The notes under the pieces were generated by a model, which searched no databases, was not told where the DNA came from, and saw only the letters and a program-made list of their open reading frames with translations. The position numbers and the translations under genes are program-made. DNA of 64,000 nucleotides from a phage. How positions within the stretch are numbered: position 1 is the first letter of the stretch; each line of letters opens with the position of its first letter. Shown here piece after piece: positions 1 through 64,000 of this stretch. Where the stretch lies: the sequence record NC_101837.1; one strand, 5' to 3'.

Positions 1-945
1 GGTTTTTGCCGTCTCCAGTTCTGCAACAACTTCTGCCCCGCGAAGACGTATACCTTCTTTGACAAAGGCCTCCAGGCGATCCTGGAATCCACCGTCGTCA
101 TGGCCCTCTATGGTCCATTCACGCCCAGGGTTAATATTGCAATCCCCAATAGGAATTTCCACGCAGATTGCAGGATAATCGGTCAATGTCTCCAGGAACT
201 TAGAGCGGTAAGGTTGGTGACCCATCACAACACGGCTCTCATCAGAGCTGGTATAACCTTTCAGGATAGTCATTTTCCAACCATCTTTCTCGTAGCGATA
301 CTGCGCCTCAACCTTGTCACCTTCCAGCATCTTACTGGTCATAGGGTCGGTAACGGTAAACGGAAACTTTGCATAGCGTAGGCATGACGCAATAGCAGTG
401 CGATATTTCAGAACATGCTCTTTCTTAACATGGAACTGAACTTTTACCCCGTTGTGCTCTTCAGTCTTCCGCTCGCGGATCTTGGTAACGTTTGGGATAC
501 CCTGATCCAAGAACAATAGATATGTGCTTTCAACACCGTTGTGCACACTGATCACATCGAAAGTGTCCACCATGCTGAACGGGGCCTTTGAACCTACACC
601 TTTATTACCTACCAGGGCGTTGCTGTTGCGCTTGGTTGACTCCCCGAGGTTCATGAAAGTGTTGCGGACCATCTCTTCTGACATACCCAATCCAACGTCC
701 TGCACAAAGAAGTATGGTTCAAGGTCTGTAGGGGAGTGAATGATGATCGGTACATCACCCCGTCCAGACTCAACATGGGAGTCCACAGCATTGAAGATTG
801 GTTCACGGCAGCTTGCCAGCACCTTATCTTCGTAAATCCCTTTAATGATTAGCCCAAAAGTCTCTTTGTTCAGAGAAATTGAGCCCCTGGTGACCTCCAT
901 ATTTCCGGTTAGTACTGCTTTAGTTTCATTACTGTTTACAATCAT
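1..945 (-). CDS. rIIA: rIIA-like protein, N-terminal GHKL (histidine-kinase-like) ATPase domain; partial, gene continues beyond window start
   Basis: ATG 943-945 overlaps TGA of upstream gene (ATGA); open minus-strand frame to position 1; translation MIVNSNETKAVLTGN... has GHKL N-box (REPIFNAVDSH), G1 box (QDVGLGMS), G2 box (GNKGVGSKAPF); N-terminal pattern resembles T4 rIIA as recalled from memory. Confidence 0.55.
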   Translation of the reverse strand, partial: MIVNSNETKAVLTGNMEVTRGSISLNKETFGLIIKGIYEDKVLASCREPIFNAVDSHVESGRGDVPIIIHSPTDLEPYFFVQDVGLGMSEEMVRNTFMNLGESTKRNSNALVGNKGVGSKAPFSMVDTFDVISVHNGVESTYLLFLDQGIPNVTKIRERKTEEHNGVKVQFHVKKEHVLKYRTAIASCLRYAKFPFTVTDPMTSKMLEGDKVEAQYRYEKDGWKMTILKGYTSSDESRVVMGHQPYRSKFLETLTDYPAICVEIPIGDCNINPGREWTIEGHDDGGFQDRLEAFVKEGIRLRGAEVVAELETAKT

Positions 946-1442
946 TTATTGCGCTCCTTGTAGTAGATATGACTCCCGAATTGAGCTGTCCTCTGCATCT
1001 TTTTTGCCCATTTCGGTCGTACTTTGGTTGTATGGTAGTGTGTTGCTCCACCTGTTATGTCCATAGCCATGTATGCAACATGGTTGTTATTATAGACCTT
1101 TAGAAGCATCTTTGCAAGACTTTTAGCGTGATCCCATGAATCTTTTTCTGTCACCTTAAAAGTTTTGCCGTGGTTTGTCCACGAAAACTGGTTAGGTTGG
1201 TAGACAATCTTTCTTATAGTGTCTGGGTATTTGGGGTGAGATTTCCTGTTTAGTGTGGCAAACCCTGATGCCAGCATACCCATCGTGCCATCCCCTCTAG
1301 CCTCCCTGTAGATATTGCATGCCAGAATGTTTTCCTTAGTATCTGAGGGCTTGCAAGTATGATATACTTTTTGTTTTGGTGCTGCAACAACAGGCAGCGA
1401 TAAAAATGCGCTCAAAATAATAGCAAAGATCTTAATTTTCAC
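942..1442 (-). CDS. secreted cell-wall hydrolase, SleB/CwlJ-like domain; candidate endolysin
   Basis: 166 aa; GTG start preceded by TGGAG; N-terminal signal peptide MKIKIFAIILSAFLSLPVVA; motif NIYREARGD...ATLNRKSHPKYPDTIRKIVYQPNQFSW typical of SleB-type lytic hydrolases. Confidence 0.55.
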   Translation of the reverse strand: MKIKIFAIILSAFLSLPVVAAPKQKVYHTCKPSDTKENILACNIYREARGDGTMGMLASGFATLNRKSHPKYPDTIRKIVYQPNQFSWTNHGKTFKVTEKDSWDHAKSLAKMLLKVYNNNHVAYMAMDITGGATHYHTTKVRPKWAKKMQRTAQFGSHIYYKERNK

Positions 1443-1449
1443 AATAACT

Positions 1450-1479
1450 CCAAATAGAAAATCCCCGCCGAAGCGGGGG
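1450..1479 (-). terminator. rho-independent terminator (stem CCCCGC/GCGGGG, UUCG loop on the transcript, U-tract)
   Basis: hairpin 1463-1478 followed on minus strand by AUUUUCUAUUU; lies just after stop of 1491..1871. Confidence 0.5.
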
Positions 1480-1490
1480 TGTCTTAGAAA

Positions 1491-1871
1491 TTAATCGTAG
1501 TGTGCCAAAATCTCTCCATCGTTGCAAGTTCCCTCTACAAAGTTATGAAGATTCATGCACTCATCTTGATAGAAGAATTTACCGCTTTTCAGCCGTAGGC
1601 CAAACAACTCCGCATCTCCACGATGGCAAGCCTCTACAAGTTCATAGATTTCATACGGCAACTCTCCGTCGTCATGGAAGAACCCAGCCTTATCGTTGAC
1701 ATAGATGAAGAAATAATCACTACTGTCGCAAGCGTCCAATATTTTAAACCAGATTTCATCTACATCTTTTTCTCGGATATCGATCACGCAAGTGGAGCTG
1801 CATTCGTACTCCTTCTCCGGCTCCTCGGTCAATACCACCAGGTAGTTTCCCCGCTTACCTACTTTAGCCAT
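1491..1871 (-). CDS. hypothetical acidic protein
   Basis: ORF track 1491..1919; preferred start ATG 1869-1871 preceded by AAGGGGGG, which avoids a 38-nt overlap with the MoxR gene. Confidence 0.4.
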   Translation of the reverse strand: MAKVGKRGNYLVVLTEEPEKEYECSSTCVIDIREKDVDEIWFKILDACDSSDYFFIYVNDKAGFFHDDGELPYEIYELVEACHRGDAELFGLRLKSGKFFYQDECMNLHNFVEGTCNDGEILAHYD

Positions 1872-1881
1872 ACAACCCCCC

Positions 1882-3066
1882 TTAAGCTTTAGCCAAAATG
1901 GCGCTAAACTCTTCACCAAACTCTTTTACAATCTTCATCAGGTTTGGGTATGCTTTGATCAGCTGAGCAACAATCTTGTCACGCCCTTTACCGATAAGCA
2001 AGGCATTTCCTAAGGCATTAGGTTTCATCATCGCCATAAAGACTGAGAATACAAAATCTCGGTTCTCGTCCTTGAAGTTTTCCCAAAGGAAATCGAGGAA
2101 GTTTGCCACGCAGCTGACAAGATCTTCGTCTGAGATACTTGCATTTTCCATCATATTACGAATAGCGATACAACCTTCAGATCCAAGAATCCACAAAATG
2201 TCTGGCTGCTTAGGACCTACGTATTCTTTGCAGCCACCTGCCATAATCCTACCGATTTCCGGTAAATTGCGTTTCTTGGTGTGGTATGTCCAGATCTCTA
2301 CCGCTGCAGTGTGACCAATAGCACCTTGCAGAAGAACACGGGCCATAGCGTCAGAAATAATACCACTGTCAAAATCGTGCAAGATGTCAGATGCAGCAAC
2401 CCAAGATCGTGGTGTGGCAAAAGATGGACAATTAATCTCAGCCATAGCCTCATAATTATCAATAGCTGATGGAACTCTTTTCAGATACCCAATTACAGAG
2501 GAGTGAACCCCGTTGAGGAATGCGTAGTCCTCAATAAACACCTCTGCATTGCTTGTAACCTCTACAATGATAAAACGGTTAGCCAGAGGGGCTTCGAGCG
2601 CCGAAAGAACCGCACCATCTGTAGAACGGTTACCCGCAGCCACAAAAACAGAACCCTTAGGGAATGCATAGGTGCCGCACTTGTGGTCAAGCATAATTTG
2701 CATTGCAACCTTTTGCAGGTAGTTATCTGCATGAGTGAGCTCATCCAGAAAGATAATTCCGCTCCAGTCAGGATCCGCAGGCCAAAATTCTGGAATTGCA
2801 AACACTGTACGTGTAGTTCCATCCGCTTCTACAGGGATAGGTAGCCCAGATAAGTCGGCAGGATCTTTATCTGACAGTCGCACGTCAACAAGGTTGTCAT
2901 CTCGCTCACCGAACATATTATCAGCGATCTGCTTCATCACCTGGCTTTTACCCACACCCATTGGTCCCAAAATTAGGACAGATCGGCTATGACGTTGGGC
3001 AAACTGAATGATAGCTGGCAACTCACGGACAGTGATTTGACCACTTTCAAATACGTTTCTTGACAT
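1882..3066 (-). CDS. MoxR-like AAA+ ATPase (CobS/RavA-type)
   Basis: 394 aa; Walker A LILGPMGVGKS, Walker B IIFLDELTHA, sensor AAGNRS; start overlaps stop of upstream gene. Confidence 0.65.
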   Translation of the reverse strand: MSRNVFESGQITVRELPAIIQFAQRHSRSVLILGPMGVGKSQVMKQIADNMFGERDDNLVDVRLSDKDPADLSGLPIPVEADGTTRTVFAIPEFWPADPDWSGIIFLDELTHADNYLQKVAMQIMLDHKCGTYAFPKGSVFVAAGNRSTDGAVLSALEAPLANRFIIVEVTSNAEVFIEDYAFLNGVHSSVIGYLKRVPSAIDNYEAMAEINCPSFATPRSWVAASDILHDFDSGIISDAMARVLLQGAIGHTAAVEIWTYHTKKRNLPEIGRIMAGGCKEYVGPKQPDILWILGSEGCIAIRNMMENASISDEDLVSCVANFLDFLWENFKDENRDFVFSVFMAMMKPNALGNALLIGKGRDKIVAQLIKAYPNLMKIVKEFGEEFSAILAKA

Positions 3067-3371
3067 TAGTAAAAATCCTCTACTTGTGTGTAAGTGTTTT
3101 CAAAGTTTTCCAAAACAGATGTCACATCGGATCTGTCAATATCGTACACAACTTCCCAGTTGTATGCAACCCTTTCTGCTGTTGCTTCTTCAGGACTTAG
3201 CCGCCTGCTGGGGTGAAAGAATGCTGTAGTGCACCTTCTTAGTTGTCTTCCGGTTTTCCCATAACAATATCTGTGGATAACTTTGTCAAAATTTAACTCT
3301 TTTTCTGCACAAAGTTCGTGTTTCTGGTATAACATGTTTATTACTCTTTTAAGTGGCATCCTTGCCACCAC
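3066..3371 (-). CDS. hypothetical protein
   Basis: 101-aa ORF, tightly packed in minus-strand operon. Confidence 0.4.
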   Translation of the reverse strand: MVARMPLKRVINMLYQKHELCAEKELNFDKVIHRYCYGKTGRQLRRCTTAFFHPSRRLSPEEATAERVAYNWEVVYDIDRSDVTSVLENFENTYTQVEDFY

Positions 3372-3374
3372 CCG

Positions 3375-3755
3375 CTAGAATGCAGTCCGAATCCAGACAA
3401 GGTTCTTATCTGCCCAATCATAGAGGCAAGTCATTGCGCTATTAAATTGCTCGCACGGAGGATAATCTTCTTCCATCTGGCGCATAGCAGAGCCTTGGGG
3501 GTAAAGCTCCCGTGCTGCAAACCACGCATCGTAGTCATCCACGGTATCGAAGTAGTATACAACATCCTCCAACTCAGGATCGAACTTTGAATTATCAGGA
3601 TCCAGTTGTTCAGGGAACTTGGAGCGTAACTTGCCAGCCACAATACTTGCCAACTCGCTAACATGCTTATTGTCCCACTCTACTAGTTTCCCGTCTTCAG
3701 TGATGCGTCCTAACCACTGATCATGCAGGTCAACCGTTGTCTTCCACCGGGTCAT
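3375..3755 (-). CDS. hypothetical protein
   Basis: 126-aa ORF in operon, acidic. Confidence 0.4.
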   Translation of the reverse strand: MTRWKTTVDLHDQWLGRITEDGKLVEWDNKHVSELASIVAGKLRSKFPEQLDPDNSKFDPELEDVVYYFDTVDDYDAWFAARELYPQGSAMRQMEEDYPPCEQFNSAMTCLYDWADKNLVWIRTAF

Positions 3756-3757
3756 TA

Positions 3758-4015
3758 TCAGTCCACCTCTTCTTCTCGTTGTAGTTCAAGATACCCGTAG
3801 GTCTGGATATCTTCAAAAGTGTGGAACTCCCCATCTGCCGCTAAGGCACGAACAACTTGGCACAAAACCTTATGAGGAACTTCATCCAGACCCAGATTCA
3901 GTGCAGGGAACACCTTATCTAAGTCAACAAAATAAACGAACTGTAGCTCACCAGCTTCAAAAGGTGTATCTTCAATAAACATCTTCTCGGCATTAGTCAA
4001 GATCTGAACTTTCAT
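3758..4015 (-). CDS. hypothetical protein
   Basis: 85-aa ORF in operon. Confidence 0.4.
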   Translation of the reverse strand: MKVQILTNAEKMFIEDTPFEAGELQFVYFVDLDKVFPALNLGLDEVPHKVLCQVVRALAADGEFHTFEDIQTYGYLELQREEEVD

Positions 4016-4392
4016 TATTCTACCTCCTCTTCTTTTTCTTCGACATTAGTTTCAGAGCTACCCCACTCTGGAGTTTCAACCTCGATAGTAAACTCACGCA
4101 CTACACGGTAATTGCCCATGAAGCGCTCCACTTCGTCAAGGTTTATGGGGAGGCCATTGGCAACCAGGTCTGCAGCACCCTCTTCTACCAGGTAGTCCAG
4201 ATTGGCTTCCAAAGCTTCAGGCTCAAACCCTGTCAATGCAATCAGATAACCTTTCCCTTCATCAGGGAGGACAATACAGCCCAACTGATTTTCTTTAAAA
4301 AGACAGTGACCATCATTATTGATTGGGTGTTCATTGCAGTAAATAGCTGCACGATAAGTAACTTTAGACATCGGTAAGGCCTCCTTAGGCAA
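4015..4392 (-). CDS. hypothetical protein
   Basis: 125-aa ORF, start overlaps upstream stop. Confidence 0.4.
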   Translation of the reverse strand: MPKEALPMSKVTYRAAIYCNEHPINNDGHCLFKENQLGCIVLPDEGKGYLIALTGFEPEALEANLDYLVEEGAADLVANGLPINLDEVERFMGNYRVVREFTIEVETPEWGSSETNVEEKEEEVE

Positions 4393-4663
4393 TTGTCATT
4401 TTACATTCTTGAAATTTTAACACAAGACGGTGATTGTGTCTAGTGTCTAAAAAGATTTTTTCAACCATCAGGCACACGGTATAACCGTCCATCTTGTTAA
4501 CAACAAAATCTCCAGGGTGAGGGAGGATGTCTCCAGGGTTGGGGAAACATAGTCCACTCAGAAAGGCATCGTCAGTGGTGGACTTAATAGATTTCCACAC
4601 ACTGTCTGCCTGAACATGTTCACCGACGTAATATACATTACCACATGCCTTCATCATAGTCAA
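4385..4663 (-). CDS. hypothetical protein
   Basis: 92-aa ORF, overlapping neighbours by a few nt. Confidence 0.4.
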   Translation of the reverse strand: MTMMKACGNVYYVGEHVQADSVWKSIKSTTDDAFLSGLCFPNPGDILPHPGDFVVNKMDGYTVCLMVEKIFLDTRHNHRLVLKFQECKMTIA

Positions 4664-5559
4664 ATCCCCGCATAAATTAAACTTGTATCAGTATACTTCT
4701 TTAATGGGTAAATATCCTGTCCATAGATGCAGTCATTAAACACCTCATCTACCCAAAGGCTACACTTATATCCCATCATTTCTAAAACACCCATCTCTTC
4801 TTCGGTAAACTTATCACCGCTCTTGCAAGATGTCAATACCTCATTCTGTACTCTTGCTACCTCGAAGCGGTTATTGGCAATATCGCTATTGGCGATCAAA
4901 TACTCACCTAAAGGGTGTGCGGCATTAAAGATGCACAGTGGGCGGTTGACGTAATAGTCTCCAGGTGTATAAAAATTATTGAGGTCTTTCACTAGAACAT
5001 TCTTATCAGTCACTTCATTTATAACATCATGCATATCGCACATCTTTATATGTTTGAGGATTCCATCCCCCATCACAAAATAAAAACTTGCTGAGGCACT
5101 TTCGGCATAGATCTTACTAGATCCGTTGTAGTTGTATTTTACTCGGATGCTAACGGGGGTTTTTCCTGTCGCGTTAGCCATCATCCAAAGAAATGGCAGC
5201 TCATACTTCTCCTCTGAGGAAACAAAAGGTGAGGTAGCCAGAGATCGAAAACCTCCAGAGAAGTTGAAAGTTACAGAACCGCTCCGGCGGTATGATACCG
5301 CGTATTCTACTTTTATATCGACGTACCCGTTGGAATAGGTGTGTCCTTCATTATCTAAATATGTCCACTTATCAGACCCAGATACCAATCTACGCTCAAT
5401 AACCTTCATCACTACAGGAATTAGTGGGTTGGTACAAACCGCTTTTGAAGTAGCTTTATCATCTAAAGCCTCGTAAATTGCAGAAAGGATGTCCCCAGCT
5501 GAAAGATTGGTTGTTATGTCCTGTTTCCACCGCGTACTAAAACTGTTAAGATTTGCCAT
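4660..5559 (-). CDS. hypothetical protein (first gene of minus-strand early operon)
   Basis: 299-aa ORF; AGGAG upstream of ATG; immediately downstream of a sigma70-like promoter. Confidence 0.45.
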   Translation of the reverse strand: MANLNSFSTRWKQDITTNLSAGDILSAIYEALDDKATSKAVCTNPLIPVVMKVIERRLVSGSDKWTYLDNEGHTYSNGYVDIKVEYAVSYRRSGSVTFNFSGGFRSLATSPFVSSEEKYELPFLWMMANATGKTPVSIRVKYNYNGSSKIYAESASASFYFVMGDGILKHIKMCDMHDVINEVTDKNVLVKDLNNFYTPGDYYVNRPLCIFNAAHPLGEYLIANSDIANNRFEVARVQNEVLTSCKSGDKFTEEEMGVLEMMGYKCSLWVDEVFNDCIYGQDIYPLKKYTDTSLIYAGI

Positions 5560-5599
5560 AAGTAAGTGCTCCTATGTTAGTTTTCTTTCGAATGGGTGC

Positions 5600-5628
5600 A
5601 CTATATTGTGGAGTTAGAGTAAAGTCAA
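5600..5628 (-). promoter_or_regulatory. sigma70-like promoter (TTGACT-17-TATAGT) for minus-strand operon
   Basis: -35 at 5623-5628 and -10 at 5600-5605 read on minus strand, 17-bp spacer. Confidence 0.45.
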
Positions 5629-5641
5629 CACGTTTTTGATG

Positions 5642-5670
5642 TTGACATCTGTTGAGACAATTGATACGAT
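5642..5670 (+). promoter_or_regulatory. sigma70-like promoter (TTGACA-17-TACGAT), divergent from the minus-strand promoter
   Basis: -35 5642-5647, -10 5665-5670; the two -35 hexamers form an inverted repeat GTCAACA-N9-TGTTGAC (5624-5646). Confidence 0.4.
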
Positions 5671-5701
5671 TTCTTCACTTACAGAGCACGAGAGACGACT
5701 C

Positions 5702-6679
5702 ATGAATCTTGAAAAATATTATACACCAGAAGAGTTAGAGCGCTTGCTCAAAAAATATAGACGCAAACAGAATAACGCACGGAAACGAGATATAGAGTTC
5801 GACCTGTCATGGGAAGAATACCTCCTATTTGGTAAAAAACTTTTAGGGGAGGGGGTATGCGACTACACCCTTATACCTTTCGACATGCACACAGATGAAA
5901 ACGGACTGGGAAATCCTTTCTACCCATCTCTGGAGCGGATAGATGATGAAGGTCCTTACGCAATTGATAATTGTTGTGTGGTAGGGTTGAGGTGCAATGC
6001 TCTGAAAGACTGTCTGGTAGATAAAAAGACTGCAATCCTGATTAAAGACAAAACTGATCGAAAAATTGTCCAGCAGATGATGCTCCACCTGAGCGAAGAG
6101 CGTATGGAGAAATTGAAAGGTGATTATACTTTTGAAGATTTCATCTTGCAATACGGGACAGAAGAAGATAAACTAGCACTATTTGACGAAGAGGAGGAAG
6201 ATATGTCACCAATGCAGGACTTTAAAAATTTCATGGCTGATCGTGCAGCCAACAAACACATTTCAGACATCGTAAACGAGACTGTGGCAGAAGAAATTGA
6301 AGAACAGAACTCTGAAGAGGAAAAAGATCCTCAGGAGGTCGAAGAGGAGATTGCAGAAGAAGTTCCTGCACTGCCTGATGATGTTGAGATTGCTAAGGCT
6401 TACACTTTCTATTGTCAAACGTTCTACGATGCAGGTATGAAAGTTGATCTGTCGTTCAGCCAATTTAAGAGTTCGTATATTCGCAAATGCTGTGCTTTAA
6501 CTGGTGAACGTCTCGGAGCTGGACTTAAACCCCTGTTGGTGACCGACTGGAATAAAGGTTTCACTAAAGGAAACTTTATGGTAGTATCTCCAATTATGGA
6601 GAAAGCTATGACAGATCTTATGAAGACCACCCGCATGACAATGACCGAGTTGGCAGGTATTTTCAAACACGTTAAATAA
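5702..6679 (+). CDS. hypothetical protein with two repeated HNH_3-like modules and an acidic linker
   Basis: ORF track 5636..6679 begins at a TTG inside the promoter; first ATG after the promoter is 5702; repeated segments CDYTLIPFD...SLERIDDEGPYAIDNCCVVGLRCNALK and CALTGERL...LLVTDWNKGFTKGN; Glu/Asp-rich linker. Confidence 0.4.
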   Translation: MNLEKYYTPEELERLLKKYRRKQNNARKRDIEFDLSWEEYLLFGKKLLGEGVCDYTLIPFDMHTDENGLGNPFYPSLERIDDEGPYAIDNCCVVGLRCNALKDCLVDKKTAILIKDKTDRKIVQQMMLHLSEERMEKLKGDYTFEDFILQYGTEEDKLALFDEEEEDMSPMQDFKNFMADRAANKHISDIVNETVAEEIEEQNSEEEKDPQEVEEEIAEEVPALPDDVEIAKAYTFYCQTFYDAGMKVDLSFSQFKSSYIRKCCALTGERLGAGLKPLLVTDWNKGFTKGNFMVVSPIMEKAMTDLMKTTRMTMTELAGIFKHVK

Positions 6680-6712
6680 TGACAGGGGCCAATGGCCCCT
6701 TCTGGAGTTTTA

Positions 6713-8173
6713 ATGGATAGCAGAAGTTCAGAAATCATTGCCTCACAGAAAGATGATGCCCTGAGAATGTTGCAGGCTGCACGTATGTATCTCCTTGAAA
6801 AGCTGCCGTTTTATGGCACACTGCTGTCAGGGTTGCAGTTCGTAGAAAACCACACATGGTGCTCCACCATGGCAACCGACCATAAACGCATTTATTACAG
6901 CCCTGAGTTCATTATGGGATTGGCTGATGAACGCAAGGCTATTCTTAAGGCTTCTCTAACTGACGAGCAGTTTGAGATGGCTGAAGTTTTCTATTCCCCA
7001 AAATCTGTGAAAGAGGTGGCCTTCCTTCTGTCACATGAGGTGGGGCATATTATCTGTGATCACCTGGTCCGTGGTAAAAGCTTTGAGCCGGAACTGTTCA
7101 ATATTGCTTGTGATCACGTTATCAACACAGGTCTTGTGGTTGACTTTAGCAAGCCTCCTTGTGTTTTCTTCCCGAAGGGGAAAAGCACTACGTTCGTGAA
7201 AGGCAAGCCTTTTGGCTTCTTAGCTAACTGCTACTGCGACATGAAGTTTCATGGATGGATTGCTGAGAACGTCTATGCAGTTCTTGATAAGCAAAGAGAT
7301 CAGAATAACGGTAAAAGTAAGAGCGGTAAAGGTGAGAACTCTCAAGGAGATAAGCGACAAACCGATGATCACATGAGTGGGAACGGTGGCACCAGTGATG
7401 ATCTTGGAAAGGCTATGGGGTATGATCAGCCACAACCTGTAATCAGCCAATCTGATAAAGATCAGGCCATGCAGGACTCTGGTGACATGCTTGAGGCAGC
7501 AATGCAAGCTTCCGGAGGTCGTTGCCCTGAGGCGGTTCGTGAGTTTGTCAAGAATAGAGGTAAGCCTGTAATCAATTATATAGACATCATCAAGCAGCGT
7601 ATGTTGTCTAAAAGAAAGGCCGAACTGACCTACAGAAAACCTGGTCGCCGATCTGGGTCTTTGACCAGCACAATGCGAAAAGTCGGAGCTATAAACAAGA
7701 ACCAGCACGTTATTGTTCCTGGTCGTAATCCGGAAAACACTATAGATATTGTGGTGGCTTTAGACGTTTCTGGCTCGATCTCTCAAAGAACTTTAAAGAA
7801 AATGTTCAATGAAATCACCGGATTGTGCAATCTGTATAAAGAATTTAAGGTTACAATGTTCTGTTGGTCAACTGAGGTTGGAGAGGTTAAAGTATACACT
7901 CGCGGCAACATAGACGAAATGATCAACTATGAGGTCCACTCAACATGGGGAACAACAGCTGCTTGCGTGTTCGAGTATCTGGATGCCAACATACCAAATG
8001 CAAAAGATGTCATCGTCCTGACCGACCTATACTTTGAGCATAACTTTGAACAAAAGGCTGTTGACAACAAGTGGAAAAAGTACGATACTTTATGGGTTCT
8101 AACCGAAGGGTATAATAAAAATTATATCCCTAGCTTTGGTAAAACTGTGGAATTAATCGAGTACGCTAAGTAA
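6713..8173 (+). CDS. von Willebrand factor A domain protein with N-terminal HExxH metallopeptidase-like domain (DUF2201/CobT-like; usual MoxR partner)
   Basis: HEVGH motif; MIDAS motif ALDVSGSIS in C-terminal half; ATG 6713 preceded by TGGAG; upstream ATG 6692 sits in loop of hairpin 6685-6699. Confidence 0.6.
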   Translation: MDSRSSEIIASQKDDALRMLQAARMYLLEKLPFYGTLLSGLQFVENHTWCSTMATDHKRIYYSPEFIMGLADERKAILKASLTDEQFEMAEVFYSPKSVKEVAFLLSHEVGHIICDHLVRGKSFEPELFNIACDHVINTGLVVDFSKPPCVFFPKGKSTTFVKGKPFGFLANCYCDMKFHGWIAENVYAVLDKQRDQNNGKSKSGKGENSQGDKRQTDDHMSGNGGTSDDLGKAMGYDQPQPVISQSDKDQAMQDSGDMLEAAMQASGGRCPEAVREFVKNRGKPVINYIDIIKQRMLSKRKAELTYRKPGRRSGSLTSTMRKVGAINKNQHVIVPGRNPENTIDIVVALDVSGSISQRTLKKMFNEITGLCNLYKEFKVTMFCWSTEVGEVKVYTRGNIDEMINYEVHSTWGTTAACVFEYLDANIPNAKDVIVLTDLYFEHNFEQKAVDNKWKKYDTLWVLTEGYNKNYIPSFGKTVELIEYAK

Positions 8174-20072: not shown

Positions 20073-20339
20073 TTAAGCTTTTTGCTCTTCGTTTTTAACG
20101 TGGTCAGGGTGCTGGCAACCCCACCGGAGCGAGATGAATTTGCTAATAAGCTGGGGGCAAGCTACTGAAGGCGCGTATATCCACGCATACCATTCAGGAA
20201 GCGTATCATTATACCCCATATGAATAAACACCCCAGTCATCACCGCCATGCCTATGTTCGACCATAGCTTAGTTTGGGACACTTTCGTAGGGTCATCAGA
20301 TGCCGCAACCAGTCCCCATAAAAACTGAGTTAGTTTCAT
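20073..20339 (-). CDS. small protein with hydrophobic segments (possible membrane protein)
   Basis: 88-aa ORF between fibre genes. Confidence 0.3.
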   Translation of the reverse strand: MKLTQFLWGLVAASDDPTKVSQTKLWSNIGMAVMTGVFIHMGYNDTLPEWYAWIYAPSVACPQLISKFISLRWGCQHPDHVKNEEQKA

Positions 20340-21483: not shown

Positions 21484-21798
21484 TTACCTTTTACTATGCT
21501 CTACGAGCATGTGCAAAATCTTTTGTACATCAGCTCGGATACCGGAGACATCTGTCCTGACATCCTGCTTAAGGTCGTTAATATCGGCCTCTAGCTTACT
21601 TAACCGGGTCTCGATAACGGAATCAAGTTTATCTTTTGTAACCATACTGTTTTTCACTAAGATGAGGTCTTTCTCCAGTTCATCCAACCTCTTGGAAATG
21701 CCTTTCCATTTGGTGTGCCACTGGTTGAAAGCCCATACACAGATCGGGACAACGGTACCCATGCAGATACCGTACAATGCCGCCAAATCCAACTCCAC
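21484..21798 (-). CDS. small membrane-anchored coiled-coil protein
   Basis: 104 aa; N-terminal hydrophobic segment then heptad-like charged region. Confidence 0.3.
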   Translation of the reverse strand: MELDLAALYGICMGTVVPICVWAFNQWHTKWKGISKRLDELEKDLILVKNSMVTKDKLDSVIETRLSKLEADINDLKQDVRTDVSGIRADVQKILHMLVEHSKR

Positions 21799-21809
21799 AA
21801 CACCTCCTC

Positions 21810-22394
21810 TTAGAGGGTAGGTCGCTCCGGGAAGAAAATGTCAGGGGCTTTAGATGTATCTATTTCAAGAAGTTTTACCCTGTACATTTTCAAATCTCTG
21901 ATGTTACGTTTCTGGTCATCAGTAAGATCATATTCAAGGTCAATCATGTCTTGATAGGCACCAATTCTAGCAGTAGCCCAAGCAAGTTCTGTCTCTATGA
22001 CACCCTCTGCCTGTTGAACAAAGAATTCATTGTCTGTGACAAATTCATCACCAACTAAACGCAAAGCGTCGTGGTGAAGCATAATGTTTTCTGGTACCTC
22101 TTCTTTTTTGGCGATAACCACACGAAGACCTGGAGCAGGCCATAAGGCATCAGGTTCTTCTGTAGATGTCTTAAGAATTCCCTTCTCGTCAACAAGTAGG
22201 AAGATACACCCCGGATTTTCTTGTCGTAATGTTCGTGACTGCACATACCAATCGCCATCATCATTACGTAAAAAATACCCAGTGTATGCTGTGTAATCCT
22301 CAACCTCTTGAGGGGTCAGCTCCTTGGTTTCCTTGTTGGTGCGGTATTCGCCAGATCCCGGTTGGTAAAGTTTAAACTCTTGAAGTATTTTCAT
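21810..22394 (-). CDS. tail fibre assembly protein (lambda Tfa-like)
   Basis: 194 aa; C-terminal ...QDMIDLEYDL...YRVKLLEIDTSKAPDIFFP matches the lambda Tfa C-terminal signature (...YRVLLNRVDTSTAPDIEWP) as recalled. Confidence 0.65.
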   Translation of the reverse strand: MKILQEFKLYQPGSGEYRTNKETKELTPQEVEDYTAYTGYFLRNDDGDWYVQSRTLRQENPGCIFLLVDEKGILKTSTEEPDALWPAPGLRVVIAKKEEVPENIMLHHDALRLVGDEFVTDNEFFVQQAEGVIETELAWATARIGAYQDMIDLEYDLTDDQKRNIRDLKMYRVKLLEIDTSKAPDIFFPERPTL

Positions 22395-46402: not shown

Positions 46403-46768
46403 TTATCCTCTCCTGCGCTTAGCTTTCGCAGCAGCTGCGGCAGCCTTCTGCTCCCGCTCCATTTCCCTGTTTTGGACGGTATCTAGGAATTCTTCGATAT
46501 CAAGATACTCACAGAGCTTCAGGAAATACGCCATATCTGCAAGATTTAGCGATTCAAAATTTTCCCCTTTGAAATTCTTGAGCACCCTACACCAAAGAAA
46601 GTCGAACCAGTTGAGTGAACTGTTCTTGGCTGCCCACTCACTGGCCCTCACAACAACCTTGCTTATTCCTGCTCTTCCGGAGTCTGATCCAGGTTGTTCA
46701 CCTGCTGAATCATACCCATCTGCTGTAACATCTCCAGAAGGCTTCCTAAACCGTCTTGTGTGAAAAAA
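46403..46768 (-). CDS. tail assembly chaperone, -1 frameshift extension (GT-like product)
   Basis: slippery heptamer UUUUUUC (plus 46762-46768) within 46663..47136; -1 frame open from there through ORF 46403..46651. Confidence 0.45.
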   Translation of the reverse strand, partial: FFHTRRFRKPSGDVTADGYDSAGEQPGSDSGRAGISKVVVRASEWAAKNSSLNWFDFLWCRVLKNFKGENFESLNLADMAYFLKLCEYLDIEEFLDTVQNREMEREQKAAAAAAKAKRRRG

Positions 46769-47136
46769 CAGCCGTAGTTAACCTCCAGAACCTTACCTGC
46801 CAGCTTAATCATCTCCAGCAGATGCCCTGCAAACACAACATCTGGGTTAAGCTTATCCACACCATCTACGGTAATATCTTCGAACAAGATTTTAAATAAC
46901 TCTTCAATAGAGCTATCATCAAGTTCTTGGAACAGGTAAGCCAGAGCAGTAGGAAGGACCTCTGCCATATTCTGACCACCAGAGATAATAGATCCACCGA
47001 TAGCACCTAGCGGGACAGCCACAATCTTACCGATTTTAGGCATGTTTTTCATTGCTTTCATCGGTCCCCAGTGGGTGATCACAAAGTTGTGCCCTGCTAA
47101 ATCAATCTCTGTTGTAGGTCTAAAGTTTATAGCCAT
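46663..47136 (-). CDS. tail assembly chaperone (G-like)
   Basis: 157-aa acidic ORF between tube and tape measure genes. Confidence 0.45.
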   Translation of the reverse strand: MAINFRPTTEIDLAGHNFVITHWGPMKAMKNMPKIGKIVAVPLGAIGGSIISGGQNMAEVLPTALAYLFQELDDSSIEELFKILFEDITVDGVDKLNPDVVFAGHLLEMIKLAGKVLEVNYGCFFTQDGLGSLLEMLQQMGMIQQVNNLDQTPEEQE

Positions 47137-56928: not shown

Positions 56929-58476
56929 TTAGATAAAACGCTTGAACATAGAAGGTGATGAGATTGATGGAATCACACAAGGAAGTGCTACCTCCTCTTT
57001 CTCCAGGAAATTAATCGCAGAAGCTACGCAGTCGGCCCAGTCGTCTTTTCTGTTAAATGTTGATCTTTCCCCGTTGAATTTTTCAAGTTCAGTCAGAAAT
57101 GCTTCCAGAGTATCAGGATGGAAACTGGATTTTACAATCCTCACCATTCCTTGTTGGGCAAGATTGGCAAAAGGTGAGAACCTTGTCAGTTTAGACTTGT
57201 TGGAAGGCATTGGGTCTTCTTCAACCCTGAACCCTTCGGCAAGCAAGGATCTGGAGGAGGTTAAGAACTCACTCTTACCTGCCTGCCCTGGGTCCACAGA
57301 GAAGACGATTATGCAATCATCACCATCGAACTGCGCCTGTTTCCTGATGATCACATCTCGTTCACCAGCCTTTTTACAGAACTTGCCTTCCAGACCTGTG
57401 GAATATCTCCCGTCATCCACGTTCTCAGGACAATAATCGCCGGACAGGTAATAAAAGCCGTCGCTATCTTTACTTACCTTAATACTGGCAGTAAAGTCAG
57501 GAAATTTATTACCGGAAGTTCTCTCGGTTCCTGCCTTATCCCATGCCCTGCAAGATACTGATCCAAGAGGTACTCTATCGGCATCACGAAGGAAAGATCT
57601 TTGAAAATAGTTTGCACCCTCAGGCTTTGCAAACCAGTTACCATGGAGAAGCTGAGCTTTTTCCAGCTCTGGTAGACCTTCGAGGAAAGCAAGGTATTCT
57701 GGGTTGTCTCTCAAACAGACAGGATTATCGAATATTGTTGCGCCTATGAACGAGAATGACAACGGTCTTGGCTTGATCTCTACACCAAGTCCGTTAACCG
57801 TGGTGTATTTCTCTATCAACTCTTCTTTAGAATCTCCCCAGATAAATTCACCGTCGCGTCGGATAAAATATCTTTTCTTACCGCATTTCTCCGGATCTGG
57901 ATACCCTTCATCGTCCAACCACCATCTAACCAGTTTGGCAAGCATGTGTTCTGAATCGGGGTTACAGCTGATAACCATTCTTGATGGATACTTTGACTGA
58001 GATCGCAGACGAGACATCAGGTAGTCTATCTGCTCCCATTCGAACTGCGTGCCCTCATCGAAGCAAACCATGGTGTACTCAAGCCCCTGATGGTTAAGCT
58101 TATCTTGTACATACTCCATATGGCAGTATTTTACAACAGCTCCCTTTTTGCTTCTATCCCACTTACCAGTGTTCGGATCAAACCGTGGAAAAATGAACTT
58201 ATGATCCTTCTCTCTGAACTTTGGCTTAATGTTTTCAGGCAGATCACTATAAATAGCTACTGCTTTAGGCCATAGTCCACCCTCACCTTCCAACTGTGGG
58301 GTTGTTCTTCGGAACATAACCACAGAGCTGTGGGGGTCATCAATAATTTTAAGTGGCATCAACTGCAAGAGGAACGACTTGCCAGACCCTGCTGCACCGC
58401 CGATTACCAAGATATCTGCATCGTTTTCGAGGATCATCTTCTGCTTTTCAGAACACGGTCCGTAAATCTTAGACAT
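56929..58476 (-). CDS. terminase large subunit
   Basis: 515 aa; Walker A VIGGAAGSGKS near N-terminus; acidic nuclease-like C-terminal half; AAGGAGAGAGG before ATG. Confidence 0.7.
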   Translation of the reverse strand: MSKIYGPCSEKQKMILENDADILVIGGAAGSGKSFLLQLMPLKIIDDPHSSVVMFRRTTPQLEGEGGLWPKAVAIYSDLPENIKPKFREKDHKFIFPRFDPNTGKWDRSKKGAVVKYCHMEYVQDKLNHQGLEYTMVCFDEGTQFEWEQIDYLMSRLRSQSKYPSRMVISCNPDSEHMLAKLVRWWLDDEGYPDPEKCGKKRYFIRRDGEFIWGDSKEELIEKYTTVNGLGVEIKPRPLSFSFIGATIFDNPVCLRDNPEYLAFLEGLPELEKAQLLHGNWFAKPEGANYFQRSFLRDADRVPLGSVSCRAWDKAGTERTSGNKFPDFTASIKVSKDSDGFYYLSGDYCPENVDDGRYSTGLEGKFCKKAGERDVIIRKQAQFDGDDCIIVFSVDPGQAGKSEFLTSSRSLLAEGFRVEEDPMPSNKSKLTRFSPFANLAQQGMVRIVKSSFHPDTLEAFLTELEKFNGERSTFNRKDDWADCVASAINFLEKEEVALPCVIPSISSPSMFKRFI

Positions 58477-58763
58477 TAACCTCTCTCCTTTGGAAACAGT
58501 GTTCTAATATAGTCTTGCAAAATGATCAATTTAGCTCTATCATTGCTACAAGACAGATTATTATCCCTCATAATGCCAGAATTCACTGCATCTGGCGCAC
58601 CTTTCTTCAAAGGCATAGCTTTAGCAGGTGGTTTCATGGCACCTTCCGGGGGTTTAACAATCAACCTTCCTACATCCGGAGGGTCAATCTTGTATTCTCT
58701 CTCAACGCTGGTTGCACACCCACATAATAACAAGCACGCAATAAACAGTGTGGCAACTCTCAT
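58476..58763 (-). CDS. o-spanin (Rz1-like outer-membrane lipoprotein)
   Basis: 95 aa; lipoprotein signal with LLLCGC lipobox, Pro-rich body; overlaps i-spanin 3-prime end. Confidence 0.5.
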   Translation of the reverse strand: MRVATLFIACLLLCGCATSVEREYKIDPPDVGRLIVKPPEGAMKPPAKAMPLKKGAPDAVNSGIMRDNNLSCSNDRAKLIILQDYIRTLFPKERG

Positions 58764-59158
58764 CGATCCTCCTGATTGATACTCTCATTATAAATATCTA
58801 TAAGCTGATCAGGAAGTGTTGACTTCTTACCTTCAGGTGATTGGAGGTAGATAATCTGCTTTTCTCTACCTGCCCTCTCAGCTATATTTAATTTATCCTG
58901 TAGATCAGAAAGGGATTTTTCAAGGTTTTTAACCTCCTCTGCGTGGCCCATTTTAATTTTGTCGGCCTGCTTTTGTTGCTGATCAAGGATCCGTTCCCAC
59001 TTCAACTCTGTTGCTAACACACCTTCTTGGTAGGCTTCATTAAGCTTAGAGTTAAACCAATACACGGCCCCAAGATAAGCTGTACCTATAGCCGCTGCAA
59101 AAACTAAACCTTTTATGATCCCTCTATACCTACTCAGCCATGTTAAACCTGAAATCAT
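58760..59158 (-). CDS. i-spanin (Rz-like)
   Basis: 132 aa; N-terminal transmembrane segment then coiled-coil region. Confidence 0.5.
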   Translation of the reverse strand: MISGLTWLSRYRGIIKGLVFAAAIGTAYLGAVYWFNSKLNEAYQEGVLATELKWERILDQQQKQADKIKMGHAEEVKNLEKSLSDLQDKLNIAERAGREKQIIYLQSPEGKKSTLPDQLIDIYNESINQEDR

Positions 59159-59579: not shown

Positions 59580-59656
59580 TGGTCTCCACGGAGTGATTCG
59601 AACACTCGACCTCCTGATCCCAAATCAGGCGCTCTACCAAGCTGAGCTACGCGGAG
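59580..59656 (-). tRNA. tRNA-Pro (anticodon UGG), CCA encoded
   Basis: by-eye cloverleaf: acceptor CUCCGCG/CGUGGAG (C1-G72), D-stem GCUC/GAGC, anticodon loop UUUGGGA, T-arm GAGUG-UUCGAAU-CACUC. Confidence 0.75.
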
Positions 59657-59667
59657 TATTTACTATT

Positions 59668-59742
59668 TGGTGGCCCTGGGTGGAATTGAACCACCGTCTG
59701 GCGATTATGAGTCGCTTGCTTGAACCTTCCAGCTACAGGGCC
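59668..59742 (-). tRNA. tRNA-Met or Ile2 (anticodon CAU), CCA encoded
   Basis: acceptor GGCCCUG/CAGGGCC, anticodon loop CUCAUAA, T-arm GGUGG-UUCAAUU-CCACC; D-stem has one mismatch. Confidence 0.65.
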
Positions 59743-59743
59743 T

Positions 59744-59819
59744 TGGTGCTGATGGCAGGACTTGAACCTACAACCTATTGATTACAAATCAATTGCACTA
59801 CCGATTGTGCTACATCAGC
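59744..59819 (-). tRNA. tRNA-Thr (anticodon UGU), CCA encoded
   Basis: acceptor GCUGAUG/CAUCAGC, D-stem GCAC/GUGC, anticodon stem AUUGA/UCAAU, loop UUUGUAA, T-loop UUCAAGU. Confidence 0.8.
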
Positions 59820-59824
59820 AAAAA

Positions 59825-59923
59825 GGTGCTAGGCGATGGAATCGAACCACCTATGTATTCAACGACTACCTCGTCTATTTTCAGGATTAAAAATCCTCGC
59901 CCTTGCCAAAGGGCTTACCTAGC
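59825..59923 (-). tRNA. atypical tRNA-like gene (possible anticodon UUU; ~30-nt extra arm)
   Basis: canonical T-arm GGUGG-UUCGAUU-CCAUC and 7-bp acceptor GCUAGGU/GCCUAGC, D-arm GCCC-UUUGGCAA-GGGC, anticodon region AGGAUUUUUAAUCCU, but ~97 nt long. Confidence 0.4.
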
Positions 59924-60021
59924 TCAGTATGTTGACCATGTTGCTAGTCGGCGATGACGACTGTAACATTTGATAATCCGGTTCTGCTTCCGGCTTTCGC
60001 TTAATTACAAGGTCAACAATG

Positions 60022-60112
60022 TGGCGGAGAGTAATGGAATCGAACCATCATCGAGTCATCCTCAACGGGACGGTTTTCAAGACCGCTTGAGCACCATTGC
60101 TCCCTACCCTCC
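60022..60112 (-). tRNA. tRNA-Ser (anticodon UGA), type II, CCA encoded
   Basis: acceptor GGAGGGU/ACUCUCC, anticodon arm GCGGU-CUUGAAA-ACCGU, extra arm UUGAG-GAUGA-CUCGA, T-loop UUCGAUU; D-arm spacing non-canonical in my parse. Confidence 0.55.
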
Positions 60113-60226
60113 TTTATAAATTATACTGATAATGACACTGATTTTCGAGCAGTTAGTGACTAGTATAAACGACGATAAATATCAATGCCATTATCTGTAT
60201 TATTTATGCATCTAAAAATATAAATT

Positions 60227-60313
60227 TGGTGGGGAGTGGTGGAGTCGAACCACCCGAGTCGCAATGACAATAGATTTACAGTCTACACCGCTACCTCTAC
60301 GGGATAACTCCCC
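60227..60313 (-). tRNA. tRNA-Tyr (anticodon GUA), type II, CCA encoded
   Basis: acceptor GGGGAGU/ACUCCCC, anticodon arm GUAGA-CUGUAAA-UCUAU, T-arm GGUGG-UUCGACU-CCACC; D-arm spacing non-canonical. Confidence 0.6.
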
Positions 60314-60317
60314 AATT

Positions 60318-60392
60318 TGGCACCCCGTACTGGACTCGAACCAGTGTCAACGGCTTAGAAGGCCGCTGCTTTATCCACTAAGCTAACAGGGC
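60318..60392 (-). tRNA. tRNA-Arg (anticodon UCU), CCA encoded
   Basis: acceptor GCCCUGU/ACGGGGU, D-arm GCUU-AGUGGAUA-AAGC, anticodon arm GCGGC-CUUCUAA-GCCGU, T-arm ACUGG-UUCGAGU-CCAGU. Confidence 0.7.
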
Positions 60393-63884: not shown

Positions 63885-64000
63885 ACATTCCTCATTTAAG
63901 TTTAATGCAGTTTTTAAGCTGGCGTTCCATACGATCCACAACCTTGTCTGGAACATCATGAATGCTTTTATTACCGTGGCGGTTTTCAACCACGATCACG

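Follow-up and report, generated by a model that had tools for sequence, protein, structure and literature searches.

The window analysed here is a 64,000-nucleotide stretch of phage DNA (sequence record NC_101837.1) from a Vequintavirus, an rV5-like E. coli myophage, and it shares 98-99% identity with inoa, Murica, and LL12, a level of identity found with at least 111 Vequintavirus genomes. Its left end contains the following genes and features:

1..945, minus strand: rIIA, 5' part (first 315 codons); the gene continues past the left edge of the window
942..1442, minus strand: Hydrolase_2/SleB/CwlJ-family gene; 166 aa, GTG start, single-domain
1383..1442, minus strand: predicted cleavable Sec signal peptide MKIKIFAIILSAFLSLPVVA (codons 1-20 of the hydrolase gene, predicted cut VVA-AP)
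1453..1478, minus strand: intrinsic-terminator-like hairpin CCCCGC-TTCG-GCGGGG followed by ATTTTCTATTT, from a terminator scan
1491..1871, minus strand: gene for a 126-aa protein (PHROG 12370), upstream of the hydrolase gene and the last one before the terminator
1882..3066, minus strand: MoxR-like AAA+ ATPase gene (PHROG 1297 at E 2e-110, weak AAA Pfam matches)

The product of 942..1442 matches Pfam PF07486 (Hydrolase_2) with 70.4 bits against a gathering cut-off of 27, in an alignment of residues 51-161 that covers the entire profile, and it also matches PHROG 938 'endolysin'. Its AlphaFold model has a pLDDT of 88.6, with low values in the N-terminal part that precedes the folded domain, and the only significant PDB matches in a Foldseek search are the SleB structures 4F55 and 4FET (probability 1.0, TM(target) 0.72-0.79). 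The protein aligns with the SleB catalytic domains of B. cereus and B. anthracis such that E47, within the sequence YREARG, is matched to the glutamate of the SleB sequence YGESRGE; the protein thus has the Y-x-E-[AS]-R-G motif, and E47 is invariant or nearly so in two homologue alignments. We take the Glu of this motif to be the catalytic residue of SleB-type enzymes.

The likeness to Bacillus SleB, a lytic transglycosylase, is one of catalytic fold and motif Glu, and the phage protein is not SleB proper. It differs in full-length architecture and scores low against the SleB equivalog TIGR02869, which gives 48.3 bits against a cut-off of 236.5 and aligns with the C-terminal catalytic part alone; a Pfam search finds no second domain in the protein, and unlike SleB it has no N-terminal peptidoglycan-binding domain. 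Its setting also differs, being that of a phage and the periplasm, where it would act on Gram-negative murein, which lacks muramic delta-lactam. Judged by these sequence matches, it is a predicted murein hydrolase or lytic transglycosylase. It is at least 95% identical in amino acid sequence in all ~115 Vequintavirus genomes and 99% identical to the proteins of rV5-type phages, and a tblastn search of phage sequences finds its homologues in over 1,200 records, far more informative than a word-indexed protein search that gave just 10.

The N-terminal segment MKIKIFAIILSAFLSLPVVA has a basic n-region, a strongly hydrophobic h-region of 15-17 residues, Pro at -4, and V-x-A at -3/-1, and its hydrophobicity is highest (2.29) over residues 3-21. 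The homologues of 4MG, ALITA, and one T5-like phage likewise begin with signal-like sequences that have AxA sites, and the export signal is conserved in Seunavirus, phi92-like, and T5-like homologues, with a signal-anchor-like N-terminus in that of Pseudomonas phage Ab03. The cleavable signal peptide that the earlier note had proposed is a prediction, with the expected n/h/c anatomy, a putative cleavage site, and conservation among homologues. A SAR endolysin was considered and rejected, because the h-region (59% I/L/V/F/M/W and 35% G/A/S/T) is, unlike SAR domains, strongly hydrophobic and not Gly/Ala/Ser-rich and is followed by an AxA-type cleavage site.

In the related Pectobacterium phage CB7 the homologue reportedly carries a signal peptide and is toxic when expressed in E. 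coli, the toxicity being given as 'data not shown' (Buttimer et al. 2020, PMC7344957), and the same paper describes the CR3 homologue as 'implicated in host lysis'. The Vequintavirinae SleB-like hydrolases described there (rV5, PVP-SE1, CR3_087, and CB7_83) resemble that of the window in family, phage subfamily, and signal peptide, and they too form part of no lysis cassette, being apart from the spanins beside the large terminase gene and with no identified holin. CB7 differs in being without rII genes, whereas the hydrolase gene of the window overlaps rIIA.

The hydrolase gene is in a replication module encoded on one strand (rIIA, rIIB, Pif1 helicase, and on to DNA polymerase), and it is the head of this leftward replication-gene operon, not a late lysis unit. 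The MoxR-like gene, whose LL12 counterpart is annotated as MoxR ATPase, lies upstream in the same orientation. A search of the literature for a Vequintavirus transcriptome found none. The hairpin at 1453..1478 has an RNA folding energy of -20.5 kcal/mol (z -2.8) and is annotated as a terminator in Murica. The GGAG ribosome-binding site of the hydrolase gene (1451..1448) comes directly after it, and because this site abuts the hairpin there is no room for a promoter between hairpin and gene. A sigma-70 promoter scan of 1..7000 gave 15 sites versus 13.0 +/- 3.4 in shuffled sequence, so that a promoter-like site at 1117..1089, inside the hydrolase gene, has no weight. The order of hairpin, GGAG, and non-ATG start is seen also in 4MG, GAP31, and KB57, with different hairpin sequences and TTG starts, and the layout of terminator, ribosome-binding site, and GTG or TTG start ahead of the hydrolase gene is conserved across three genera.

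The product of 1..945 is identified by its sequence as rIIA, a predicted membrane-associated protein with a GHKL-type ATPase fold; it matches PHROG 612 (rIIA) over residues 1-279 with an E value of 1e-100, and Pfam HATPase_c_3 with 36.6 bits against a cut-off of 25. The full-length Murica rIIA is 660 aa and is followed, across the record ends, by rIIB, which is outside the window here. T4 similarly has a GHKL-fold rIIA followed by rIIB, although its rII genes are not known to be preceded by an exported hydrolase gene. The TGA of the hydrolase gene (944..942) overlaps the rIIA ATG (945..943) in an ATGA, and the overlap on which translational coupling had been proposed is thus real, but it is not distinctive: 1- or 4-nt stop/start overlaps occur at ~16 of the ~75 gene junctions in the window (~1 in 5), and the AAGGAG at 959..954 gives rIIA a ribosome-binding site of its own. 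Because such compaction is common in this genome, the overlap is not evidence of a functional pair. No hidden small membrane ORF was found between or overlapping the two genes. The further suggestion, that the rII genes set the timing of lysis, is an outdated one. Knock-down of rIIA or rIIB in the Vequintavirus EdH4, whose rII proteins have low sequence identity to those of T4, has no effect without Rex and lowers plating on RexAB cells, so that the two genes counter Rex exclusion and are otherwise dispensable (PMC11879866).

Within the window the 942..1442 product is indeed the only recognisable peptidoglycan hydrolase, as had been claimed. A tblastn search for a lambda-type endolysin inside the window gave no match, and ten of its baseplate and tail proteins contain no further peptidoglycan-hydrolase domain; on this ground we rejected a second hydrolase in the window in the form of a virion-associated or tail lysozyme. 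However, all close relatives encode a soluble homologue of lambda R (LL12 gp90, Murica gp81, and inoa_43), whose gene comes after that for DNA ligase in 125 related records and which matches PDB 1AM7 at E 3e-56. In the closest relative this gene starts 5,218 nt (~5.2 kb) past the position of the right window end, and the reading of the SleB-like protein as the only hydrolase is an artefact of the window edge, with the lambda R-type gene lying ~5 kb beyond it. LL12 gp90 was named as the endolysin by its Texas A&M annotators (PMC6658697), and papers on BME3 and iGC_PHA_EC001 refer to 'two endolysins/lytic proteins' in such phages; some relatives' records apply the label 'endolysin' to the SleB-like protein.

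The 942..1442 product would then be neither the sole nor the presumed principal endolysin of the phage, and with an ordinary lambda-type endolysin in all close relatives a non-canonical lysis pathway is not implied. The lambda R-type gene is also without an adjacent holin and sits among early/middle-looking genes, so that its designation as 'principal' rests on homology and the annotators' judgement. Of the canonical holin-endolysin pair that the earlier note allowed might lie outside the window, the endolysin is thus found but no canonical holin adjoins it.

The remaining putative lysis genes of the window, and the candidates for a holin, are as follows:

20073..20339, minus strand: gene for an 88-aa product that is charged at its C-terminus and has two segments of weak hydrophobicity (PHROG 1322 'membrane protein')
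21484..21798, minus strand: gene for a 104-aa bitopic membrane protein with a coiled coil after its TMD (about residues 5-23; PHROG 5345)
56929..58476: large terminase gene, with the spanin pair directly upstream
58476..58763, minus strand: o-spanin (PHROG 1267 at E 2e-22), with a lipoprotein signal and lipobox-like LLCG-C
58760..59158, minus strand: i-spanin (PHROG 4297 'Rz-like spanin' at E 1e-47), with a TMD at residues 14-32 and a periplasmic coiled coil

The region 58476..59158 has the features of a two-component spanin pair, an assignment with which the Murica annotation agrees. The o-spanin gene shares 4 nt with the i-spanin gene and 1 nt with the terminase gene, so that the spanins do lie beside the terminase gene and far from the hydrolase gene, as first described. 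The dispersal of the lysis genes and the want of a recognisable holin likewise match the accounts of LL12 (PMC6658697) and CB7 (PMC7344957), which report dispersed lysis genes, spanins by the terminase gene, an export signal, and a missing holin. The signal peptide, the toxicity, the location of the spanins, and the missing holin are thus already known for the subfamily, and on these points nothing is added here beyond the genome papers.

The two fibre-block genes offered earlier as holin candidates fare unequally. The 21484..21798 product has one clear TMD, and its gene is directly downstream of a tail-fibre assembly gene (21810..22394, Caudo_TAP) and is conserved in all Vequintavirinae genera; we regard it as a candidate only, whether for a holin or an antiholin. 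The 20073..20339 product, conserved in the tail-fibre module of Vequintavirinae and of phi92/phAPEC8-like phages, is weakly hydrophobic (maximum Kyte-Doolittle 19-residue score 1.05) and is a weak holin candidate. Both genes are in the late tail-fibre module and neither is beside an endolysin gene; neither product matches a Pfam holin family at E<=1, and no holin annotation of their counterparts was found in the records. Pfam holin matches were likewise absent for the 68-aa protein by the lambda-type endolysin, two Murica 2-TMD proteins, and the 89-aa protein upstream of the spanins. A whole-genome hydrophobicity scan of Murica yields unproven holin candidates outside the window, such as gp168 and gp117, the latter 75 aa long with two strong TMDs and a charged C-terminus.

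The sister genera differ from Vequintavirus immediately downstream of the hydrolase gene. The SleB-like gene is next to rIIA in Vequintavirus, in Seunavirus, and probably in Mydovirus, but Certrevirus, Seunavirus, and Mydovirus have, directly after the hydrolase gene, a holin-like gene (50-65 aa, 2-TMD) that is absent from the window, and where rIIA is present this gene lies between it and the hydrolase gene. A tblastn search (E<=1) found no Vequintavirus homologues of the 57-aa 2-TMD protein of Seunavirus.

Beyond the subfamily, T5.083 and the Hydrolase_2 proteins of Tequintavirus, Phapecoctavirus/Justusliebigvirus, and the Pseudomonas phages Nankokuvirus/Pakpunavirus are 33-40% identical to the hydrolase (T5.083 ~36%). 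They belong to the same PHROG 938 and have signal-like N-termini, a second endolysin elsewhere in the genome, and neighbours that do not include rIIA. T5 has its own holin-endolysin pair. T5.083 scored as 'Not fit' in a genome-wide CRISPRi-ART knock-down screen, which has a known false-negative rate. Holin-independent Sec export of an endolysin that is restrained until the membrane is de-energised is familiar from Lys44 of the Oenococcus phage fOg44 and from the SAR endolysins P1 Lyz and phage 21 R, each the sole endolysin of its own phage and encoded by a late gene in the lysis cassette. The window phage group differs from these in having a second, cytoplasmic lambda-type endolysin, and in the location of its hydrolase gene in the replication operon.

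We propose, with somewhat better than even confidence, that the 942..1442 product is a low-dose accessory muralytic enzyme of the periplasm, that the lambda R-type protein is the main endolysin, and that rIIA and rIIB have an anti-Rex function. The hydrolase would be made with its Sec signal peptide, exported, and cleaved after Ala20, as predicted, leaving a mature protein of ~146 aa free in the periplasm, where Glu47 would cut the glycan strands of murein. Its dose would be low, with read-through of the terminator as the sole entry into the gene and translation from a GTG start, and its accessory activity would be present in the periplasm before lysis. The main lysis enzyme would be the soluble lambda R-type transglycosylase, requiring a holin and then the spanin pair by the terminase gene, and the effect of the hydrolase may be freed of restraint once holin triggering de-energises the membrane. 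RIIA and rIIB would counter Rex-type abortive infection, and the 4-nt overlap with the hydrolase gene would reflect operon compaction without any shared timing of lysis. The conservation of the hydrolase (at least 95% in ~115 genomes) and its 2-TMD neighbour in the sister genera do, however, suggest a role in lysis that is more central than accessory.

A function that is early and not lytic is fairly unlikely, but has several of the same observations on its side. The exported enzyme would nick or remodel the sacculus early and contribute little to final lysis, with a change of cell shape or division, a wall hostile to superinfecting phages, or rII-linked envelope changes as possible purposes. 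The position in an early/middle replication operon and the low-expression signals are consistent with this, as is the conservation of periplasmic targeting in virulent phages of unrelated families, each with a further endolysin; T5 shows no need of its homologue for plaque formation or fitness, and strong natural conservation would be expected of a conditional function. The toxicity of the CB7 homologue is nevertheless what a lytic enzyme would give, and in the sister genera the holin-like 2-TMD gene beside that of the hydrolase points to lysis.

It is improbable that the Sec-exported SleB-type enzyme is itself the phage's endolysin, acting independently of a holin in a non-canonical pathway timed by the rII genes, the fibre-block membrane proteins, or both, as in essence first proposed. 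Such a role would accord with its export signal and intact catalytic domain, with the failure to identify a holin beside any lysis gene, and with the 'endolysin' label in some records and the description of the CR3 homologue (PMC7344957), and both the recurrent adjacency to rIIA and the pinholin-like gene following the hydrolase gene in sister genera could be read in the same way. Yet all relatives encode a canonical lambda R-type endolysin just past the window, rIIA and rIIB of EdH4 are dispensable without Rex, and the hydrolase gene is in a replication operon, behind a terminator and with a GTG start, joined to rIIA by an overlap of a kind commonplace in this genome. The homologue in T5, a phage with its own holin-endolysin pair, is also not needed in the laboratory.

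A related reading, to which we attach little probability, is that the ancestral Vequintavirinae had a second lysis module, of which the hydrolase forms one half. The enzyme and its 2-TMD pinholin-like partner remain as an intact gene pair in Seunavirus, Mydovirus, and Certrevirus; the partner would have been lost in Vequintavirus, leaving the enzyme checked only by its dose and by membrane energisation, with co-transcribed RIIA and RIIB influencing wall failure. Least likely, and very doubtful, is a dispensable or enzymatically weak passenger (moron) retained by linkage and playing no significant part in hosts of the E. coli K-12 type, for although the 'Not fit' score of T5.083, the weak SleB equivalog match (48 bits against a cut-off of 236), and the lack of a peptidoglycan-binding domain are in its favour, it accords poorly with at least 95% identity in ~115 genomes, a spread of homologues over more than 1,200 phage records, an invariant catalytic Glu, a conserved signal peptide and regulatory layout, and the toxicity of the CB7 homologue.

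The rV5-like phages rank among the coliphages isolated most often and find use in cocktails for therapy and food safety, and the same type of enzyme is found in T5-like, phi92-like, and Pseudomonas phages, across more than 1,200 records. Should the hydrolase prove to be a remnant of an ancestral lysis module, with RIIA and RIIB affecting when the wall fails, rII and lysis would be joined by a true mechanism, of the kind looked for ever since the r mutants of Benzer. A transglycosylase exported ahead of lysis could speed lysis, remodel the wall, or exclude other phages; knowledge of which it does would be a real gain for phage lysis biology and may also yield an enzyme that reaches the periplasm by itself.

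The ORF at 942..1442 encodes a SleB-fold enzyme that is conserved, as is its export signal, and that is predicted from its modelled fold and a conserved Glu to be catalytically intact; it lies behind a terminator, with a weak start codon, at the head of a replication operon. The phage that carries it has a spanin pair as well and, judging from its relatives, a lambda-type endolysin that is soluble. The lysis-related features recognized in the window are:

942..1442, minus strand: SleB-like hydrolase ORF, GTG start, 166 aa, Pfam and PHROG matches
58476..58763 and 58760..59158, minus strand: spanin pair, with the large terminase gene immediately downstream

A search with window bases 1-3100 gave matches in 121 phage records. 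In 111 of these the match spans 80% or more of the query, at 90-99.3% identity. All belong to the genus Vequintavirus (rV5-like E. coli myophages), with inoa, Murica, and LL12 among them. Because they are near-identical to the window, their annotations can be used as a map of the window and its flanks. Between 16 and 23 GenBank records (MG0656xx) named 'Campylobacter phage', with C. jejuni as host, share 98-100% identity with E. coli Vequintavirus genomes and are probably mislabelled or contaminant phages.

The hydrolase ORF matches Hydrolase_2 (PF07486) in Pfam with 70.4 bits against a cut-off of 27, as well as PHROG 938 ('endolysin'), and phmmer aligns the B. cereus and B. anthracis SleB catalytic domains to residues 38-160. 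The only PDB matches of its AlphaFold model (pLDDT 88.6) are the SleB structures of these two species (probability 1.0, TM 0.72-0.79), and E47, the Glu of a Y-x-E-[AS]-R-G motif, is kept in all aligned homologues. The protein scores far under the NCBI SleB equivalog threshold, and no peptidoglycan-binding domain was found with Pfam; it is a SleB superfamily member and not an orthologue of the spore enzyme.

The features of the cleavable-looking signal peptide described in the earlier note are borne out by sequence inspection. The predicted signal (MKIKIFAIILSAFLSLPVVA, with cleavage before AP) has two lysines, a strongly hydrophobic core of 15-17 residues, and a VxA-type site with Pro at -4 and Val/Ala at -3/-1. 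Homologues from Seunavirus 4MG, phi92-like ALITA, and one T5-like phage also begin with a signal-like segment that has an AxA site, and the N-terminus of a homologue from a Pseudomonas phage resembles a signal anchor. The composition (59% I/L/V/F/M/W) fits a putative cleavable Sec signal; a SAR domain was ruled out, as the segment is not Gly/Ala/Ser-rich. SleB-like proteins bearing a signal peptide have been reported in all Vequintavirinae genera, and that of CB7 is toxic on expression in E. coli (data not shown there; PMC7344957).

Ahead of the hydrolase gene, a GC-rich hairpin with a UUCG loop and a T-run (1478..1453, minus strand) stops 2 nt short of the GGAG that serves as ribosome-binding site; the start codon is GTG. 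The SleB-like genes of 4MG, GAP31, and KB57 are arranged in this way too, with hairpin and T-run followed by GGAG and, 5-6 nt later, TTG as start codon; the hairpin sequences differ. The ALITA gene also starts with TTG.

Loci with this layout, in Vequintavirus, Seunavirus, and Mydovirus (L005, L010, and L012 are sequence stretches of relatives)
Window 1440..1480, minus strand
L005 ~3955-4003
L010 ~2905-2968
L012 ~2455-2503

This arrangement indicates selection for a low level of expression that depends on read-through, as would be expected of a toxic periplasmic enzyme, and its occurrence in three genera suggests conserved attenuation of a toxic gene.

The hydrolase stop codon (TGA, 944..942) overlaps the ATG (945..943) of a minus-strand ORF that runs out of the window and is rIIA (PHROG 612 at E 1e-100, with a GHKL ATPase domain). 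The overlap is thus as the earlier note described, but special coupling is not supported; rIIA has its own ribosome-binding site (AAGGAG, 959..954) and 1- or 4-nt stop/start overlaps occur at about 16 of about 75 gene junctions in the window, so the overlap indicates no more than co-transcription of genes in a compact genome. A sigma-70-like match (TTGCAA-17-TATAAT, 10/12; 1089..1117, minus strand) within the hydrolase coding sequence could provide separate transcription of rIIA; such matches are no more numerous in this region than in shuffled sequence. In Murica, one strand carries rIIA, then rIIB, a gene for a Pif1-type helicase, other replication genes, and the DNA polymerase gene, and the hydrolase gene is therefore, as read from gene order, the apparent head of a replication module. 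In EdH4, a Vequintavirus among the near-identical matches, CRISPRi-ART knock-down of rIIA or rIIB leaves infection of Rex-free E. coli unaffected and reduces plating on cells with lambda RexAB (PMC11879866). The rII pair is thus probably a counter-defence system and not a lysis clock, contrary to the timing role previously proposed.

Nearby, a MoxR-like AAA+ ATPase (1882..3066, minus strand) and a protein with DUF2201_N (putative metallopeptidase) and DUF2201 VWA-like domains (6692..8173, plus strand) look like a MoxR-VWA type pair; the Murica counterpart of the latter is annotated as 'HNH endonuclease'.

The location of the spanins beside the terminase gene, far from the hydrolase, is confirmed, and those of CB7, rV5, and PVP-SE1 also adjoin it, with no lysis cassette (PMC7344957). 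Upstream of the spanins are seven clustered tRNA genes (59580..60392, minus strand), including a 99-nt ARAGORN call (59825..59923, minus strand) with a four-base anticodon (atcc) and no isotype, whose GenBank counterparts are inconsistently annotated (Asp|Gly, Lys); neither this nor the tRNA-Ser call at 60022..60112 was found by Rfam at gathering score.

The hydrolase is the only recognizable one in the window, where tblastn found no lambda R-type endolysin and ten tail/baseplate proteins contain no hydrolase domain, but not in the phage. The LL12 announcement assigns gp90 as endolysin and gp65/gp66 as spanins (PMC6658697), and gp90, which corresponds to Murica gp81 and inoa_43, is homologous over its full length to the lambda R transglycosylase (PDB 1AM7, E 3e-56), lacks an export signal, and is found as DNA in 125 phage records. 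When the window is placed on its closest relative, inoa, its position 64000 falls at 31,063, and the lambda R-type gene begins 5,218 nt further on. The non-canonical pathway proposed earlier thus arose because the window stops before the canonical endolysin gene is reached. Papers on BME3 and iGC_PHA_EC001 credit these phages with 'two endolysins' or 'two lytic proteins', one a lysozyme and the other a hydrolase of SleB type, and a Salmonella phage study reports that T5-like phages likewise have two lytic enzymes. In all relatives the lambda-type gene is directly followed by one for a 68-aa protein (LL12 gp91/inoa_44; LL12 stretch L004 10122-10328, outside the window; PHROG 4641) with a hydrophobic, lipoprotein-signal-like N-terminus (…LFMAACLAC…).

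No holin could be named in LL12 (PMC6658697), in agreement with the earlier note, which saw no canonical holin adjacent to the hydrolase or the spanins. Besides the signal of the hydrolase, a hydrophobicity scan of all window ORFs of up to 260 aa gave clear membrane segments for both spanins and 21484..21798, a marginal one (1.54) in the 157-aa protein at 46663..47136, and segments in two further ORFs that match no annotated Murica gene. Of the two fibre-block genes said to encode small membrane proteins, 21484..21798 (104 aa) qualifies and 20073..20339 (88 aa) is only weakly hydrophobic. Neither matches a holin family, and they remain legitimate putative holin/antiholin candidates. In every Vequintavirinae genus the two genes, both on the minus strand of the window, stay neighbours in the tail-fibre module, separated by 0.5-1.1 kb, and 20073..20339 is also kept in phi92/phAPEC8-like phages. 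The 104-aa gene (minus strand) is directly downstream of the tail-fibre assembly gene 21810..22394 (Caudo_TAP), resembling T4, where holin gene t follows gene 38.

Outside the window, Murica 92412..92639 and 110321..110692 (L008/L009) encode unannotated proteins with two strong TMDs each, gp117 (75 aa) and gp168 (123 aa), neither matching a Pfam holin family; gp117, with its charged C-terminus, is no weaker a candidate than the fibre-block proteins. In Certrevirus the candidate is a 65-aa two-TMD protein overlapping the SleB-like gene (PMC7344957). Seunavirus and Mydovirus (61 records) encode a 50-57 aa two-TMD protein, often unannotated, between the SleB-like gene and rIIA:

L005 4536-4709
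L010 3501-3674
L012 3036-3188

The 57-aa Seunavirus protein has a basic C-terminus, the KB57 version ends in two lysines only, and by sequence both look like a class II holin or pinholin. The gene is absent from the window, and no Vequintavirus homologue is detectable; there the hydrolase gene adjoins rIIA.

We think it reasonably probable that the hydrolase is an accessory enzyme. It would be exported by Sec and cleaved after Ala20, and small amounts would gather in the periplasm, beginning early or midway through infection. There it may nick or remodel the sacculus, or it may stand ready as a second muralytic activity that is already in position. Once the holin has abolished the membrane potential and murein synthesis has ceased, nothing would restrain it any longer, as is known for endolysins that other phages export. 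An early role that is purely non-lytic, with which the position among replication genes is compatible, is unlikely. The proposal that it is the principal Sec-exported endolysin, timed by rII, is improbable given the lambda R-type enzyme and the EdH4 results. Least probable is a dispensable passenger gene, since E47 and the signal are conserved. The T5 homologue, the 450-nt PHROG 938 gene T5.083, was scored 'Not fit' (fitness -3.97, P 0.73), meaning knock-down without host protection, in a screen whose authors concede a false-negative rate (PMC11879866); this speaks for an accessory or dispensable gene and against a principal endolysin.

The lysis features of the window are those of a well-sampled genus and already in print; the low-expression layout, the holin-like gene of the sister genera, and the conservation of the fibre-block pair are new details.
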